Virus record (IMG/VR): IMGVR_UViG_3300032038_008756
Length of the DNA stretch: 20,000 nt
Source: an uncultured virus (IMG/VR IMGVR_UViG_3300032038_008756)
Lineage: Duplodnaviria; Heunggongvirae; Uroviricota; Caudoviricetes
Strand: one strand, 5' to 3'
Part shown: piece by piece, positions 2,643 through 17,431 of the stretch
How the letters are laid out: each line of letters begins with the position of its first letter
Numbering within the stretch: position 1 is the stretch's first letter
Position numbers and translations under genes: made by a program
Notes under the pieces: model-generated
Told to the model about the DNA's origin: nothing
The model's database searches: none
What the model saw: only the letters and a program-made list of their open reading frames with translations

Positions 2643-3355
2643 TAATATTCAATATATTTATACTTATCTCTGCTATTAAAAATTTTTTCTTCTGAAATAG
2701 ACTTTACAATAGCTTTCAAATCATCTCCAATATGCATCCATGTTTTATTAATATCATTCCACTGTCTAATCATAACACACTTTTCTGTGCAATTTATTAC
2801 ACTAAGCTTTAAGTATATCATATTATCAGCTTCACCATTTCCACATCCACAAGTTATAGGATATATCTTAGAGTACACGGGAGAATTATTATAAGTTTCT
2901 TCGCCAATAATAGTGACCCTATTATTTGTAAAGAAAGAATCCCTGTCTGGAACATACCCATTCATATAGATTGGAAATTCCTCTTTTTCTGTAGAGGTTA
3001 GTCCTTCAAGGTGGTTTGGAATTGAGATTGTCTCTTTAATATAAATATAGATCTTTTGTTTAAGGTCTTTTTCTAACTGCTCTAAGTAAAAAACTTCTTT
3101 ATTTTTATAGAAACAGCTTAAAGCAGTACTTAAGTCATCAAGAGTCTTTAATGCATATTCAGGAATTAAAAGATAATCTTCTCTTTGATTTTCTAATATA
3201 GAATAATATCTTCGATTAAATCGAGTATAAACTACTACTGTATAGGATTTATCATACCTTTCTATATACGCCTTTGTATTACTATTATATATAGATATTA
3301 TAAAATCCTTTCTATCCTTATTATAATCTTTTAAAATGTCATCAAACATAATCAA
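2642..3355 (-). CDS. hypothetical protein with FIEYD-like C-terminus
   Basis: 237-aa ORF; ATGA overlap with upstream gene; has CGC; ends DKYKYIEY*. Confidence 0.85.
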   Translation of the reverse strand: MIMFDDILKDYNKDRKDFIISIYNSNTKAYIERYDKSYTVVVYTRFNRRYYSILENQREDYLLIPEYALKTLDDLSTALSCFYKNKEVFYLEQLEKDLKQKIYIYIKETISIPNHLEGLTSTEKEEFPIYMNGYVPDRDSFFTNNRVTIIGEETYNNSPVYSKIYPITCGCGNGEADNMIYLKLSVINCTEKCVMIRQWNDINKTWMHIGDDLKAIVKSISEEKIFNSRDKYKYIEY

Positions 3356-4278
3356 GGATAAAGTTGATATATCATTACATCATCTTCTTGTAAGTTTTCG
3401 ATTGTCTTTTTCCAAATATCCATTTGTTGTTTATAAAATTCTTCTGAAAATTTATCTTTATTATAATAAGTGTACGCTGGAACTAACATTTCTCTTATTA
3501 ATTCTTTTTGGGATTCTGTTGCTGTATCATATGTAAAGAAGGATTTAAGTTGAACTTCTTTATTCCCATGTAAAATTCCGGTAAAGTATCCCATAGCTGT
3601 TTTAAGAATCATTTGAGAAAGTAGTTCTTGTTCTGTATATTTATGTATAGGAATTTCCGATTTAGTAGTAGATGCCCGTTGTTCTTTTTTATACATAGCC
3701 CAAACCTCTTCAGCACTTGGAATATAATCTTCGGGTAATTCTTCTACTACTATTTCTTTTTTCTTAGCTTCGTCTTCCTTTTCTTTGATCCAATTATACG
3801 GAAAGTATACTGAAATTTCTGATCTATCAAATATTCTAGAAATTACTTCATCTGCAGACATAGAACTATCAATATCAGTGCATCTTTCTCTAATTCGTTT
3901 CAGTACATGTGAGTTGACCGTTGTAATATAATGACCAACCCTACCGTCAACTCTATACTTTAGGCCTCTAAAAATTACATAGAAGCTAGAACCATTCGAA
4001 GTAATTCCTTTACAGTGAATATGTGTATCATTAAGTGGCTTTTCTGGTTGTCCCTTCATTCCAGTTTTTATAAACCACTTATTAAAAGTTTTAGAAGAGG
4101 TTATAGTAACTGAACTATAAATCCAATCTTCAATAATTTTCCCCGGCACATTCTTTCTCTTACTTAGATATGGTTTTCTAAGTTTTTCTCTTTCTCTTTT
4201 AATTATCTTCTTGACAAAATCTAGATCAATACTAAGATCTCTGTACAAGTCATTTCCTGTTAATTTTTCTGTTATCAT
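3352..4278 (-). CDS. hypothetical protein
   Basis: 308-aa ORF starting 7 nt downstream of a CCTTATATATG motif; contains SHVLKRIRER. Confidence 0.85.
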   Translation of the reverse strand: MITEKLTGNDLYRDLSIDLDFVKKIIKREREKLRKPYLSKRKNVPGKIIEDWIYSSVTITSSKTFNKWFIKTGMKGQPEKPLNDTHIHCKGITSNGSSFYVIFRGLKYRVDGRVGHYITTVNSHVLKRIRERCTDIDSSMSADEVISRIFDRSEISVYFPYNWIKEKEDEAKKKEIVVEELPEDYIPSAEEVWAMYKKEQRASTTKSEIPIHKYTEQELLSQMILKTAMGYFTGILHGNKEVQLKSFFTYDTATESQKELIREMLVPAYTYYNKDKFSEEFYKQQMDIWKKTIENLQEDDVMIYQLYP

Positions 4279-4285
4279 AATTTTT

Positions 4286-4296
4286 CATATATAAGG
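4286..4296 (-). promoter_or_regulatory. repeated promoter-like motif CCTTATATATG
   Basis: Minus strand reads AAAGCCTTATATATG-AAAAATT-ATG(4278). Confidence 0.7.
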
Positions 4297-4300
4297 CTTT

Positions 4301-4462
4301 AAAGAAAAAAAAGAAAAAGGGAAGGGCGCGATATGCCCTTTATTGTCCTGACTGTGGGCGTTAATAGTTGCGTAGTCCTTTCTTAAGATTTAAATGAGTT
4401 ATATTAGGCGCGTGAACTGCCGCTTACTCATACTACGGCATGTGCCGCTTCCCTTCTTTCAC
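4301..4462 (-). ncRNA. candidate structured small RNA (about 160 nt), unknown family
   Basis: Locally GC-rich and without a long ORF; lies between a motif copy (4460-4470) and a hairpin plus U-tract; 5' AAGAAGGGAAG is complementary to 3' CTTCCCTTTTT. Confidence 0.55.
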
Positions 4463-4470
4463 ATATAAGG
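4460..4470 (-). promoter_or_regulatory. repeated promoter-like motif CCTTATATGTG
   Basis: Minus strand reads TGAAAACCTTATATGTGAAAGAAG; faces the candidate RNA and is divergent from the copy at 4496. Confidence 0.65.
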
Positions 4471-4495
4471 TTTTCAATACCTTTTCAGCCGTAAC

Positions 4496-4506
4496 CCTTA
4501 TATATG
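4496..4506 (+). promoter_or_regulatory. repeated promoter-like motif CCTTATATATG
   Basis: CCTTATATATGTTATGAT, 18 nt identical to 15411-15428; the ATG of nadE follows 2 nt after the motif. Confidence 0.7.
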
Positions 4507-4508
4507 TT

Positions 4509-6401
4509 ATGATGAATAGAAAAGAAGCAAAATTAATAAGAGTATGTGCAGCTATACCAAAAGTAAAAGTTGCAAATGTAGATTATAATGTAGAGCAAAT
4601 TATCAAATTAGTTGATAAAGCTTATAAACAAGATGTAGACGTTATAGTATTTCCGGAGCTTTGTGTAACAGGTTATACTTGTGGAGATCTATTTCACCAA
4701 GAAACCTTAATAGAGGCTGCCGATAAAGGAATTTCTAAAATTCAAGCGGCATCTTTTAAAGCAAAAGAAATGATAATTATAGTTGGTTCTCCTATTCGAG
4801 AATATGGAAGGTTATTTAATTCAGCCGTTGTTATCCAAAATGGAGATCGAATTGGTACTGTTGGAAAAAAGTATCTTCCAGGTTATAAAGAATTTTATGA
4901 AGAACGATGGTTCAGTAAAGATAATCGACCAGCACAAATCTTTAAGACTCCTGATTTTAAGTTTGGAATCGAAATTTGTGAAGATGTTTGGTCAGTAGTA
5001 CCACCTTCTTGTAGGCTGGTTCAAAAAGGCGCTGAGATAATATTTAATTTGTCAGCTTCTAATGAGCTTATTGGAAAGCATGAGTATCTTATGGACCTTC
5101 TTAAACAACAAAGTGCAAGAACAATTGGCGGTTATGTGTATGCTTCATCTGGTTATGGGGAGTCCTCTCAAGATGTAGTTTATGCAGGAAATGCAATTAT
5201 CTATGAAAATGGAAAACTTCTTGCTCAAAGTGAAAGATTTAAAATGGATGAGCAGATAATAGTTCAGGATATTGATTTGGAGTCTATACAAAATGAAAGA
5301 ACTGTTAATACATCATTTGCTAAGTATGTTGGGGCTCTTAAAGCATACCCTAATGAAATTTATCTTCCACTTATCAAAAATCCAAAAGAAGATACTTTGA
5401 GAAAGTATAACGGTCAACCATTTGTTCCAAAGGGTGAAGAACTTAAGAAACGTTGTCAAGAAATTCTTGATATCCAGGTACATGCATTAGCTAAGAGGCT
5501 TGAACATACTGAAATGAAACCAGTAATTGGTGTATCTGGTGGCTCTGATTCGACTTGGGCATTGATAGTAATTATTGAATCGATGAAAAAACTTGGTCGA
5601 CAAATGAGTGATATTGTTGGAGTAACTATGCCAGGTTTTGCTACTAGTTCTAGAACTAAAAATAACTCAAACCTTTTATTTGAGGGTTTTGGAATTACTG
5701 GTAAAGAAATTGATATCAAGGGAATTTGTGAAGCAGAATTAACTGCTCTTGGTCATGATAAAGAGACACAAGATATTACCTTTGAGAATGTTCAAGCAAG
5801 AACTAGAACACAAATTCTAATGAATATTAGTAATCAAGAGGGTGGTCTAGTAATTGGAACAGGTGATCTCTCAGAATTAGCACTTGGTTGGTGTACCTAT
5901 AATGCTGACCATATGAGTATGTATGGAGTTAATGCAAGTATTCCGAAGACACTCATTAAGTCTCTTATTAGGTGGTATGCAGAAGAAAAAGCTGAAGAAA
6001 ATGTACGTGTAGTATTATTAGACATTCTTAATACACCTGTTAGTCCAGAATTAACTGGTAGTGGTGCTGAAGGACAGAATGCACAAGTAACTGAGGATAA
6101 TATTGGTCCGTATGAATTACATGACTTTTTCCTGTATAACATGCTAAGACATGGGTTTGGGCCGAAGAAAATTCTATATCTAGCGAAACATGCAGAATTC
6201 TCTAAGACTTATACACTAGCTGAGCTGAAAAAATGGTTAGAGGTCTTTATAAAGAGATTCTTTTCACAACAATTTAAGAGAAGTTGTCTTCCAGATGGCC
6301 CTAAAGTAGGTAGTATTAGTCTTAGCCCCAGGGGAGATTGGAGAATGCCAAGTGATGCTTGTAAAGATGAATGGTTTAAACAAATAAAGGATTTTCAATG
6401 A
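4509..6401 (+). CDS. nadE: glutamine-dependent NAD+ synthetase (nitrilase-type glutaminase domain plus synthetase domain)
   Basis: E-K-C triad motifs FPELCVTGY, KKYLPGYKEFYEERWF, EICEDVW; synthetase motifs GVSGGSDST, ENVQARTR, GTGDLSE, FKRSCLPDGPKVG. Start moved from 4440 to ATG 4509 (or 4512), just after the motif. Confidence 0.97.
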   Translation: MMNRKEAKLIRVCAAIPKVKVANVDYNVEQIIKLVDKAYKQDVDVIVFPELCVTGYTCGDLFHQETLIEAADKGISKIQAASFKAKEMIIIVGSPIREYGRLFNSAVVIQNGDRIGTVGKKYLPGYKEFYEERWFSKDNRPAQIFKTPDFKFGIEICEDVWSVVPPSCRLVQKGAEIIFNLSASNELIGKHEYLMDLLKQQSARTIGGYVYASSGYGESSQDVVYAGNAIIYENGKLLAQSERFKMDEQIIVQDIDLESIQNERTVNTSFAKYVGALKAYPNEIYLPLIKNPKEDTLRKYNGQPFVPKGEELKKRCQEILDIQVHALAKRLEHTEMKPVIGVSGGSDSTWALIVIIESMKKLGRQMSDIVGVTMPGFATSSRTKNNSNLLFEGFGITGKEIDIKGICEAELTALGHDKETQDITFENVQARTRTQILMNISNQEGGLVIGTGDLSELALGWCTYNADHMSMYGVNASIPKTLIKSLIRWYAEEKAEENVRVVLLDILNTPVSPELTGSGAEGQNAQVTEDNIGPYELHDFFLYNMLRHGFGPKKILYLAKHAEFSKTYTLAELKKWLEVFIKRFFSQQFKRSCLPDGPKVGSISLSPRGDWRMPSDACKDEWFKQIKDFQ

Positions 6402-8085: not shown

Positions 8086-8331
8086 AGAATTATCAAGCAA
8101 AATTTTTTAGGTAAGAAGTGGAATATATTCCGGAAAGAAATTACAGGCTTAACAACTAGAGTTAAACAGCTTAATAGTGTTAAGAGGGATATTAATCTGA
8201 CTTCAAGTGAATTAAGGAATATTGAATTAGAAATTCATGACTTGAAGGAAGTTAGAAAAAATCTTATACCTGTCTGCATCTATTATAAAAAGAGATATAA
8301 GAACTCTTTAAACAATAATAAAGTGGATTAA
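8082..8331 (+). pseudogene. frameshifted (or read-through) gene of about 82 aa missed by the ORF track
   Basis: ATG 8082 overlaps the upstream TGA and stops after 10 codons. Removing one T from T6 (8103-8108) joins it to an ATG-less frame open to TAA 8329-8331. Confidence 0.6.
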
Positions 8332-8344
8332 TTTCCACTTTTTT

Positions 8345-8355
8345 CCTTATATATG
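8345..8355 (+). promoter_or_regulatory. repeated promoter-like motif CCTTATATATG
   Basis: TTTTCCTTATATATGTGAAA; the last G is the first base of the GTG start of 8355..8543. Confidence 0.7.
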
Positions 8356-8958: not shown

Positions 8959-9266
8959 GAATAGTAGTAATTATATTAATGATAGTAGGTCTCATTTCTG
9001 TAATTTTGCTATTAATTGCTTGGATAGTTAAAAAGAATGATACCGGTGAGTATAGAATTGTAAAGAAACAACCTGTTGATTTTCAAGGCGACTATGCTAT
9101 TCAGAGGCGGAATAAAATTATAGGTTGGAGAGAAATATACTCTATTTGGGGTTTTAGATCTGCAAAAGAAGTACTTGGACAAATTGAAAAGTATGGAGCT
9201 CCTGGAGTAGTAGATTCAGTTGATATAGATAATAAAATGTCAACTGAAAGAAATAAGGGGAGATAA
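8955..9266 (+). CDS. hypothetical protein with N-terminal membrane anchor
   Basis: Start reassigned to ATG 8955 (ATGA overlap); MRIVVIILMIVGLISVILLLIAWIV. Confidence 0.8.
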   Translation: MRIVVIILMIVGLISVILLLIAWIVKKNDTGEYRIVKKQPVDFQGDYAIQRRNKIIGWREIYSIWGFRSAKEVLGQIEKYGAPGVVDSVDIDNKMSTERNKGR

Positions 9267-9288
9267 CACCTCTCCTTTTATTTTATTT
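9251..9288 (+). terminator. intrinsic terminator
   Basis: AAGGGGAG-ATAACAC-CTCTCCTT imperfect stem followed by a T-rich tract, directly before the next motif copy. Confidence 0.65.
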
Positions 9289-10911: not shown

Positions 10912-11438
10912 CAACAATTAATGGTGGAACAGCAGAAACAAGAGAATTTATTGAAGGTGTTCTTTGGAAAATGAAGAAATTCCTTCCAATTGATCCATTT
11001 GATGGAAAACTCTTAGTAGTAGAGGAAGAGACTGAAAATCAAATTGAACTCAGTAATGGCGAGGCTGATGATAATAGACGAGAATATACCATAAATAAAA
11101 TAAGCACCAAGAAAAATGGTTTTGATATTTATGATTGGGTATTTAAAGCGGGCGATGTTATTATTGATGAAGGCAAAGCTGTATCTAGTTCATCGGGTTT
11201 ACATGTTCTCCCTAGTACAATGAAAGATGCGATAGTAGTTATTACTGGAACTCTTACTTATACTAGATCACGTTATGAAACAATCATAACTAATATGGGA
11301 GGCATTAATGGACGAGGAATGACAAAGAAAACTGATTTTCTAATTGTTGGTGTTAATTCAGGAAGTAAATTAGCTAAGGCTAAAGCACTAGGGACAGCTA
11401 TAATTGGAGAAAAGGAGTTCCTTGCAGTTTACGGCTGA
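10908..11438 (+). CDS. BRCT-domain protein (LigA-type BRCT fused to unknown acidic N-terminal domain)
   Basis: VVITGTLTYTR...MGG...MTKKTDFLIVGVNSGSKLAKAKALGTAIIGEKEFL matches the C-terminal BRCT of NAD-dependent DNA ligase; no ligase catalytic domain. Confidence 0.88.
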   Translation: MTTINGGTAETREFIEGVLWKMKKFLPIDPFDGKLLVVEEETENQIELSNGEADDNRREYTINKISTKKNGFDIYDWVFKAGDVIIDEGKAVSSSSGLHVLPSTMKDAIVVITGTLTYTRSRYETIITNMGGINGRGMTKKTDFLIVGVNSGSKLAKAKALGTAIIGEKEFLAVYG

Positions 11439-11441
11439 AAT

Positions 11442-11452
11442 CCTTATATATG
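11442..11452 (+). promoter_or_regulatory. repeated promoter-like motif CCTTATATATG
   Basis: TGAAATCCTTATATATG; the TGA is the stop codon of the BRCT gene. Confidence 0.7.
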
Positions 11453-11560
11453 AATATAAATGACAGGTCAGCGGATCTGTCTTACTCAATTAATTACGAT
11501 AAATCGGTTAATTATTAATTAGTAAAGGTAGGGCGTAGTGATTACGGTCTATCTTTTTTT
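11453..11560 (+). ncRNA. candidate small RNA (about 110 nt, three hairpins) or micro-ORF transcript
   Basis: GACAGGTC-AGCG-GATCTGTC hairpin, an AT-rich hairpin, then AAAGGTAGGGCGTA-GTGAT-TACGGTCTATCTTT plus T-run. Confidence 0.5.
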
Positions 11561-16813: not shown

Positions 16814-16929
16814 AATTAATAGAGATTTTGGGTTCTTTGTTATTTTTATAACTTTAACTCTTCTCAATTTTGTTAAACCTCTTTATATATAACATCTTTA
16901 TCATAATACTATTTTGTTATTTTTGACCA

Positions 16930-17156
16930 TGTCTATTAAGATTATATAATCTCATAAGAGATTACTTTCTATAAGTACTCTAGTATAGACTCTATAGGAT
17001 AGAATTTATACCTTCGCGGAGTTTGGCTTCACAACTTTAGTGCTACCACTAGACCACTATGCCACGTTGAGGCACTCCGATATATAGTGGAAAAGAAGAA
17101 ACCAGTTGCAACATCTACCTTATATATGTATGTGTTGTACTTAATTTCTTCTTCAC
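16930..17156 (-). ncRNA. candidate structured RNA or long structured leader
   Basis: Starts at the motif 17154-17164; 70-nt hairpin (17087-17156), CGGAGT/ACTCCG-closed multibranch domain (17017-17079) and further small hairpins. The 3' end is uncertain. Confidence 0.5.
17118..17128 (+). promoter_or_regulatory. motif copy CCTTATATATG, antisense to flanking genes
   Basis: Perfect copy on plus, convergent with the copy at 17154. Confidence 0.4.
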
Positions 17157-17164
17157 ATATAAGG
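17154..17164 (-). promoter_or_regulatory. repeated promoter-like motif CCTTATATGTG
   Basis: Minus strand reads TGAAATCCTTATATGTGAAGAAG; the TGA is the stop of truncated grpE. Confidence 0.7.
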
Positions 17165-17167
17165 ATT

Positions 17168-17431
17168 TCAGGGTTTTCCCAGAATCCTTTTAAATTTTTC
17201 CAATATTAAACCAAGACCACTAGGATCTCCAGCTTTCATTGCTCTTTCAAGATCATCTAGAACTGGTAATACAGACTTAATAACATCCTCACCAGCATAT
17301 TTCTTTAGATCTGAAAGTTCTTTTGCACTGCGAATCTTATAATTTTCAAATTCACGTTTGGTCTGTGCTATCCTCTCCTTCAAGATTTTAATCTCTTCTT
17401 GATACTCTGCCAAGCTCTTATAATCATCCAT
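17168..17431 (-). CDS. grpE: GrpE nucleotide exchange factor, helical part only (truncated)
   Basis: EFENYKIRSAKE...KYAGEDVIKSVLPVLDDLERA...GLGLILEKFKRIL; the C-terminal beta domain is absent. Confidence 0.8.
   Translation of the reverse strand: MDDYKSLAEYQEEIKILKERIAQTKREFENYKIRSAKELSDLKKYAGEDVIKSVLPVLDDLERAMKAGDPSGLGLILEKFKRILGKP

Follow-up and report, generated by a model that had tools for sequence, protein, structure and literature searches.

A report on jumbo-phage small RNAs (PMC11512511) describes 11 such RNAs for Pseudomonas phage 201phi2-1, three of them intergenic and eight generated by premature termination in 5'UTRs, and a small RNA upstream of gp182 in phiKZ; the definition of these units relied on the mapping of both RNA ends, 5' as well as 3', and conservation across genera applies to one of them. 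According to PMC7598289, the promoter motifs of jumbo phages that encode their own polymerases are short, AT-rich and conserved, and in phiKZ the conserved, AT-rich early motifs comprise about 10 nt and the late motif reads T(-3)ATG(+1) (PMC7598289, PMC7618050). The phage investigated here belongs to an uncultured rumen group that is unrelated to 201phi2-1. A classic attenuator consists of a promoter, a leader of about 150 nt, a terminator and an ATG shortly after it, and the 6S RNAs (RF00013 and relatives) have a length of about 150–180 nt with 5' and 3' ends that form a closing helix around the interior, an arrangement that is reminiscent of the element described below.

The DNA stretch that we analyzed, in the following called the window, comprises 20,000 nt of an uncultured virus (IMG/VR record IMGVR_UViG_3300032038_008756). 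It is AT-rich (mean 31.3% G+C) and densely coding, and the majority of its proteins belong to no family. The recognizable products include a glutamine-dependent NAD synthetase with CN_hydrolase and NAD_synthase domains (nadE; 4509–6401, plus strand), a BRCT-domain protein, a nucleoside deoxyribosyltransferase-like protein, a GrpE-like fragment and a tRNA nucleotidyltransferase. Relatives of the nadE protein with 43–65% identity are located on IMG/VR contigs of 13–355 kb, four of which range from 218 to 355 kb, and the identity reaches up to 70% among metagenome contigs. The public runs that contain window DNA stem from 13 studies and are mostly labelled as bovine-gut or gut metagenomes. Based on the large IMG/VR contigs of the nadE relatives and the labels of these runs, the window is assigned to an uncultured rumen jumbo-phage lineage. 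The GrpE-like fragment is an 87-aa ORF (17168–17431, minus strand) that matches only the N-terminal coiled-coil of GrpE (PF01025 positions 19–83 of 165, E 1.7e-15) and is predicted to be a truncated, phage-borne GrpE-like protein.

The element under study, designated unit A, is located in the 230-nt gap between nadE and a 308-aa gene on the minus strand (3352–4278), which are arranged back to back. On the minus strand, the gap begins with the reversed copy of a promoter-like motif that heads nadE (4496–4506, plus strand, 3 nt before the ATG at 4509), followed by a 25-nt spacer and the back-to-back motif copy P1 retrieved by our motif scan (CCTTATATGTG, 4470–4460), whose extended form TGAAAACCTTATATGTGAAAG resembles the copies at the head of two other non-coding units of the window (units B and C, see below). 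Downstream of P1 and the adjoining AAAGAAGGGAAG, a CGGC-ACAU-GCCG hairpin (4436–4447, -5.0 kcal/mol alone) precedes a domain at 4373–4435, in which UAGU/ACUA (4435–4432/4376–4373) encloses AUGAGU/ACUCAU (4431–4426/4399–4394). An interrupted arm, the terminator hairpin AAGGGC-AUAUCGC-GCCCUU (4322–4340; 6 bp, 4 of them G-C, -8.0 kcal/mol) and its tail of CCC and a long U-rich tract that extends to near 4301 (4301–4321) come next, and the series ends with the second motif copy P2 (CCTTATATATG, 4296–4286), which precedes the start codon of the 308-aa gene (ATG at 4278) by 8 nt. The terminator tail overlaps the 3' arm of a putative end-to-end helix, whose 5' arm AAGAAGGGAAG (4448–4458) pairs with CTTCCCTTTTT at 4324–4314. 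The predicted transcript (4303–4460, minus strand) is free of ORFs and has a length of about 150–158 nt, with both ends predicted: the 5' end is placed on the final G of the motif or directly behind it, by analogy with T(-3)ATG(+1) of phiKZ (PMC7618050, PMC7598289), and the 3' end within the U-tract.

This architecture agrees with most of the sequence-only reading that drew attention to the locus. Its 11-bp pairing of the two ends with one G-U can be read directly from 4458–4448 and 4324–4314, and the CGGC-ACAT-GCCG hairpin, the nested TAGT/ACTA and ATGAGT/ACTCAT pairings and the CGC..TAT..GCCC / GGGC.ATA..GCG arm are all present, as are the two motif copies of the same orientation that bracket unit A (P1 at 4470–4460, P2 at 4296–4286). 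The longest ATG-initiated ORF is indeed the decapeptide MSKRQFTRLI, which is situated within the UAGU/ACUA domain. No credible ORF of at least 25 aa was found in unit A under translation table 11, with TAG read as Q or under table 4, and the longest frames amount to 9–10 codons (minus strand) and 24 aa (plus strand). The proposed GC-richness was borne out as well: the core at 4319–4458 contains 47.1% G+C and represents the top 140-nt stretch of the 20 kb (next-best 44.3%), and the gap as a whole contains 38%, compared with 18–31% in the other eleven gaps of at least 30 nt. The proposal of an ORF-free minus-strand unit, which follows a motif copy and closes in a good intrinsic terminator, is supported.

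The firmest result of our analysis is that the motif CCTTATAT(A/G)TG represents a gene-start-linked signal. A scan of the window with CATATATAAGG, i.e., the motif on the opposite strand, retrieved 28 matches at no more than two mismatches versus 12.3 ± 3.9 in shuffled sequence, and none of 200 shuffles reached 28. All eight copies with zero or one mismatch are intergenic, each aimed at a gene start or a non-coding unit. CCTTAT[AT] sites are intergenic in 11 of 19 cases, though intergenic DNA accounts for roughly 7% of the window; all 11 aim at a downstream unit, seven of them ending 0–8 nt before a start codon and one 57 nt before it, and the remainder head ORF-less stretches. Two copies directly follow the terminators at 8320–8341 and 9255–9277. 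The motif (CCTTATA..TG) recurs in six loci of relatives (L005, L007, L008, L012, L014 and L015); in L005 and L015 it is located upstream of nadE, about 30 nt before the ATG, and near-matches are found there in L001 and L018. In the relatives, between 2 and about 60 nt separate it from the ATG, a variability to be expected of a transcription start but not of a translation signal. Given the intergenic placement, the aim at gene starts, the copies after terminators, the recurrence in relatives and the variable spacing, it is reasonable to regard the motif as a putative promoter of this phage. Like the phiKZ-type promoters, it is short, AT-rich, highly conserved, located directly at gene starts and ends in TATG or TGTG; unlike them, it has the sequence CCTTATAT(A/G)TG. 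One relative with many motif copies, a 305-kb IMG/VR contig with a 59% identical nadE (G005), carries coding pieces that resemble the RNA polymerase subunits beta (PF00562, 57.6 bits) and beta' (PF00623, about 25 bits; 41047–42030, 50327–50485), a feature shared with those jumbo phages that possess a multisubunit polymerase; the window is without a polymerase gene of its own.

Several features of the start regions accompany the motif. Its copies at 4496, 8345, 9289 and 15411 on the plus strand and at 4296 and 15406 on the minus strand end 0–8 nt before start codons, and the GTG start of the gene at 8355 shares the last G of the motif. Shine-Dalgarno sequences are almost absent among the 34 genes of the window, and many mRNAs of this phage would be leaderless or nearly so if the motif is the promoter. 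Units A, B and C share the extended motif TGAAAnCCTTATAT(A/G)TGAA, and a 12-mer, TTACGGCTGAAA, is present upstream of the motifs of unit A (4482–4495, minus strand, 25 nt upstream) and unit B (11428–11441, plus strand, adjacent); in the latter case the stop codon of the gene in front forms part of it. Both words could constitute an extended promoter form for non-coding units or be a coincidence. At the left end of the window, consecutive genes on the plus strand exhibit a second recurring word, GATTTATAGAATATG with the variants TTTGTAGAGTATG and ATCATAGTAATATG, right at their start codons (375–396, 799–820, 1370–1391 and about 2048–2065), which may represent a translation-coupling or internal start signal.

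The predicted terminator of unit A is of good quality. In a scan of the window for terminator-like sites, the hairpin at 4340–4322 with its tail CCCTTTTTCT was the second in a listing of 15 sites (7.5 ± 2.5 in shuffles), and upstream of it there is no other minus-strand gene that it could serve. The hairpin and the long U-tract of the alternative terminator fold proposed earlier are present; its mutual exclusivity with the end helix is not strict. If the terminator is enforced, the 5' end pairs farther down the U-tract at -37.3 kcal/mol versus a minimum free energy of -38.4 kcal/mol, so that the two structures are nearly isoenergetic in the folding model and can coexist in a shifted register. 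The end-to-end helix is, in part, the one element that exceeds chance: among the 39,980 11-mers of the window only two can pair with its 3' arm, namely its own complement and the 5' arm, and 40 separate window sites can pair somewhere within the 27-nt U-rich 3' region. The purine-rich start GTGAAAGAAG also recurs behind the motif in unit C, at the gene at 8355 and in leaders of the relatives. Since it is common to other motif-led transcripts, part of the end helix may be a by-product of a promoter-linked sequence that meets a U-tail.

Less can be said in favor of the fold as a whole. The 170-nt minus strand folds at -38.4 kcal/mol with a z-score of -1.18, and 24 of 200 dinucleotide shuffles were at least as good, i.e., the fold is no better than that of shuffled sequence, which had been named beforehand as an outcome that refutes the label of a structured RNA. 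Trimming to the likely transcript (4303–4459) results in a z-score of -1.9, and the interior without the end helix is worse than the shuffles (z +0.3 to +0.6). The plus strand folds slightly better, at -47.3 kcal/mol with a z-score of -2.14, which 6 of 200 shuffles equalled. The claim of a special folding of unit A is thus weak and not demonstrable.

A comparison with the 4227 models of Rfam 15 yielded no match in the window at gathering thresholds, in accordance with the earlier statement that unit A cannot be assigned to a known RNA family. At E-values of up to 10, four matches were obtained in 4200–4560, with 13.8–17.3 bits versus thresholds of 41–55. These matches include neither NAD-riboswitch models (nadA and pnuC-type motifs) nor any cis-regulatory family above noise. 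The suggested connection to NAD metabolism is not supported, because the motif is present upstream of nadE in relatives without such a unit and no NAD riboswitch was matched. No 6S model of Rfam matched even at E-values of up to 10, and an architecture of central bubble and terminal arm was not predicted. ARAGORN detected no tRNA or tmRNA gene in the window at default settings and none in 4300–4470 at relaxed settings, which gave scattered low scores elsewhere only. A retron msr-msd RNA was also considered and rejected, as the downstream 308-aa protein and its 15 relatives are without an RVT domain and its translation contains no YxDD.

Among the described systems, unit A most closely approaches the small-RNA units of 201phi2-1 (PMC11512511). 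It shares with them a length below 250 nt, a terminator soon after the start, the lack of an ORF and the intergenic or 5'UTR location. The operational definition of the 201phi2-1 units asks for a mapped start directly in front, a termination site no more than 250 nt away, an enrichment of RNA reads and the lack of a protein-coding frame; the predicted terminator of the likewise non-coding unit A follows about 120–158 nt after the motif. It differs from these units in that its ends are predicted only, that no homologue was found in the searched data and that the promoter-like motif is a different one. The likeness to attenuators and riboswitch leaders consists in a leader of about 150 nt, an intrinsic terminator, a start codon about 20 nt further on and a pairing that competes for the 5' arm of the terminator. 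Unlike attenuators, unit A has no recognizable aptamer or leader family, and a second promoter-like motif (4296–4286) is located between terminator and gene, which would be a promoter at a site where attenuators have none, provided that the motif acts as such.

No homologue of unit A was retrieved by exact patterns, blastn, nhmmer or a covariance model. An exact 35-mer of the unit is absent from IMG/VR, and an exact 29-mer from the GTDB genome contigs. A blastn search of 4290–4480 against five related contigs found motif-level matches only, the best one (E 0.004) in the last 35 nt of the query, i.e., the end with the P2 motif. Neither blastn nor nhmmer detected the body of unit A in 94 loci, blastn against 50,697 phage records (INPHARED) yielded a single 22-nt chance match, and a covariance model built from the single sequence had no match in four related contigs, a set that does not include L018, and found only itself in 14 sources. 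The route via nadE led to six IMG/VR and 80 metagenome loci with a best identity of 70%; unit A is absent from all four closest ones examined, and synteny is not maintained, as nadE is preceded by other genes in the relatives. Units B and C are likewise missing from the five relatives, which indicates that these are too distant for any intergenic feature and that the negative result for unit A is a weak one.

A closer comparison is provided by a related strain in DNA run X5 (95–99% identity, about 97%), in which unit A is kept nearly unchanged. Only one of 158 positions differs, compared with 14 of 341 in the adjacent 308-aa gene and 5 of 363 in nadE; this variant density is marginally lower than in the 308-aa gene (p = 0.045) and statistically indistinguishable from that of nadE (p = 0.67) and of both flanking genes together (p = 0.15). 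The single change, at position 4325, disrupts the G-C pair in the middle of the hairpin of the terminator (from -8.7 to -4.3 kcal/mol), and it fills a bulge and lengthens the end helix, so that the full fold improves from -38.4 to -40.5 kcal/mol. According to these models the substitution would favor the end helix, which, as a single data point, is no more than suggestive. Another change, at position 4288, turns P2 into the exact form of P1 and shows that A and G are both tolerated at this position of the motif. In RNA runs, the region is represented by contigs that cover 3900–4264 and 4520–4900 (X1), 3900–4070 and 4637–4864 (X2) and 4758–4900 (X8). The interval 4265–4519 is contained in no RNA-run contig and spanned by DNA run X5; with a depth of 2–8, the contigs cannot show the absence or the ends of a small RNA.

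The search for targets within the window remained at chance level. The best duplexfold energy between the body of unit A and the 34 start regions was -28.9 kcal/mol, compared with a null mean of -30.1 kcal/mol, and 56% of the shuffles were as good. The longest Watson-Crick match to a start region comprises 11 nt and is located inside the U-tract, and 9 of 200 shuffles reached at least 11 nt. The complementarity of unit A to these start regions thus does not exceed chance, and we propose no target.

The 308-aa protein encoded downstream gives no clue to the target or role of unit A either. Its family is small, with 15 representatives at E ≤0.001 among 1.84 billion, and two close protein homologues show 93% and 55% identity, neither of which could be linked to DNA. 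No PHROG or Pfam family was matched, its 15 relatives are likewise without a credible Pfam domain, and the comparison with PDB sequences gave no match better than E 0.095. The AlphaFold model is confident (pLDDT 83.9, pTM 0.78), but its function could be assigned neither by family nor by fold: Foldseek against the PDB found no match at E 0.001 or better, the best hit of a wide VIA-align search (Z 5.0) lies within noise, and the ESM Atlas contributed hypothetical-protein clusters only. Used as bait for closer loci, the protein recovered none in IMG/VR and none in the GTDB contigs.

Unit A is accompanied by other motif-led non-coding units in the window. Unit B (11442–11560, plus strand) begins with CCTTATATATG immediately behind the stop codon that closes the BRCT-domain gene and consists of about 100 ORF-less nucleotides with three hairpins, the last of which is followed by a T-run. 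Its fold (11451–11560, plus strand) amounts to -28.8 kcal/mol with a z-score of -4.43, and none of 200 shuffles was as good; no Rfam match above noise and no homologue in the five relatives was found. Judged by the predicted folding, unit B is a much better candidate for a structured small RNA than unit A. Unit C (16868–17164, minus strand) starts with CCTTATATGTG, which precedes about 285 ORF-less nucleotides in front of the gene at 16867. In its first hairpin GAAGAAGAAA pairs with UUUCUUCUU, the fold of 17155–16868 on the minus strand has a z-score of -3.1, and the section 16980–17119 exhibits 42% G+C and a D-arm-like GGTCTAGTGGTAG wording; ARAGORN reported no tRNA in unit C, relaxed settings included. 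Unit D (17118–17198, plus strand) comprises a motif copy that faces the motif of unit C, about 30 nt, a hairpin (AAGGATTTCAGGG-TTTT-CCCAGAATCCTT) and a T-run, and it may correspond to a very short transcript (about 70 nt) that is antisense to the start of unit C.

The reading that we prefer, tentatively and with slightly less than even confidence, is that unit A represents a stand-alone small RNA of the phage that extends from promoter to terminator. The RNA would begin on the minus strand at P1 or directly behind it (about 4460), comprise a GC-enriched body of about 120 nt and terminate at the hairpin 4340–4322 with its U-tract, which gives a length of about 150–158 nt; P2 would serve as the separate motif copy of the 308-aa gene. 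Once the RNA is released, its purine-rich 5' end might pair with the CUUCCC-U tail, thereby enclosing both RNA ends in one stabilizing helix, and the RNA might act in trans on a target of the phage or the host. That such an RNA is produced, where it ends, how it folds and that it has any function is what we infer from the sequence. This interpretation is favored by the behavior of the motif, a terminator without any other minus-strand gene upstream, the lack of an ORF and the top GC stretch of the window. The window offers the 3' arm no 11-nt partner besides the 5' arm and the exact complement; this and the single difference among 158 positions in X5 point in the same direction, as do the other motif-to-terminator units of the window and the small RNAs of 201phi2-1 (PMC11512511). 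The interpretation is weakened by a fold at the level of shuffles, the slightly better fold of the plus strand, the lack of a homologue and the purine-rich start that other transcripts share, and also by a variant density like that of nadE and both flanks together, the lack of a target and the variant that weakens the terminator.

Two competing explanations, each of which we regard as rather unlikely, deserve the most attention. The sequence may represent the 5' leader or attenuator of the 308-aa gene, with transcripts from P1 that mostly stop at the terminator and leave a 5'UTR-derived RNA as a by-product, and a conditional or phase-specific read-through that adds to the expression from P2. 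The succession of promoter, leader of about 150 nt, terminator and an ATG 23 nt past the U-tract corresponds to the classic layout, and the pairing of GCCC (4361–4358) with GGGC (4338–4335) can sequester the 5' arm of the terminator. Real weight is given to this explanation by the relatives, where the motif is followed by a hairpin or terminator-like hairpin and then the gene, e.g., a hairpin with T6 about 20 nt before the ATG in L008 and a leader of about 80 nt with a hairpin in L012, and by 201phi2-1, in which 8 of the 11 small RNAs originate from premature termination in 5'UTRs (PMC11512511). However, the full motif copy P2 between terminator and ATG implies that the 308-aa gene does not need P1, the antiterminator is weak (-4.7 versus -8.0 kcal/mol for the terminator), and no riboswitch or leader family was matched. 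An inert relic, to which we assign a similarly low probability, would consist of a promoter duplicate and of what is left from a cassette that was lost or rearranged, whose terminator only insulates the 308-aa gene and whose RNA, if any, is functionless. The orphan status in all searches, the other genes upstream of nadE in relatives, an interior fold no better than random and a variant density that is not significantly below that of coding sequence overall are in line with such a remnant. Unconstrained DNA of an AT-rich phage would, however, be expected to drift to the background, and unit A has retained the highest GC content of the window compared with 18–31% in other intergenic regions; motif, terminator and end helix are intact, and 157 of 158 positions are identical in X5 versus 14 differences in 341 positions of the neighboring gene.

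The remaining possibilities are considerably less probable. It is a long shot that units A–D form an early small-RNA set, read by the phage's own polymerase from TGAAAnCCTTATAT(A/G)TGAA, in which unit A would be a stable, end-closed decoy or regulator of a phage-specific class without cellular counterpart; under the same speculative proposal, unit A might titrate, for instance, the polymerase itself or an RNA-binding factor of the host that serves in defence or translation. Still less likely is a micro-peptide, possibly a leader peptide, encoded by the 9-codon frame VKEGKRHMP from the GTG of the motif or by the 10-codon MSKRQFTRLI. A GTG embedded in the motif does open a 62-aa ORF at 8355, and unit C harbors a 13-codon frame from the same GTG, but the frames of unit A have 9–10 codons and no homologues, other genetic codes open no longer one, and about 100 nt beyond them would be left unexplained. 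An element of the plus strand, e.g., a NAD-sensing leader of nadE or a site that acts at the DNA level, is the least credible candidate of all: the slightly better plus-strand fold (z -2.14) and the position upstream of nadE speak for it, whereas nadE has its own motif copy downstream of the element and 3 nt before the ATG, no plus-sense motif is present upstream, and the hairpin has no T-run on the plus strand. The lack of NAD-riboswitch or other cis-regulatory matches above noise and the absence of the element from all four closest nadE relatives examined also argue against it.

Taken by itself, unit A is an ordinary, unproven small-RNA candidate, probably of a generally known type. Should the RNA prove real, the few giant phages with known small RNAs would be joined by an uncultured jumbo-phage lineage of the rumen, and together with units B, C and D it would suggest that several promoter copies of these phages serve non-coding products. 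The motif itself provides a handle for the prediction of transcription units, and possibly of leaderless translation, in this phage group.
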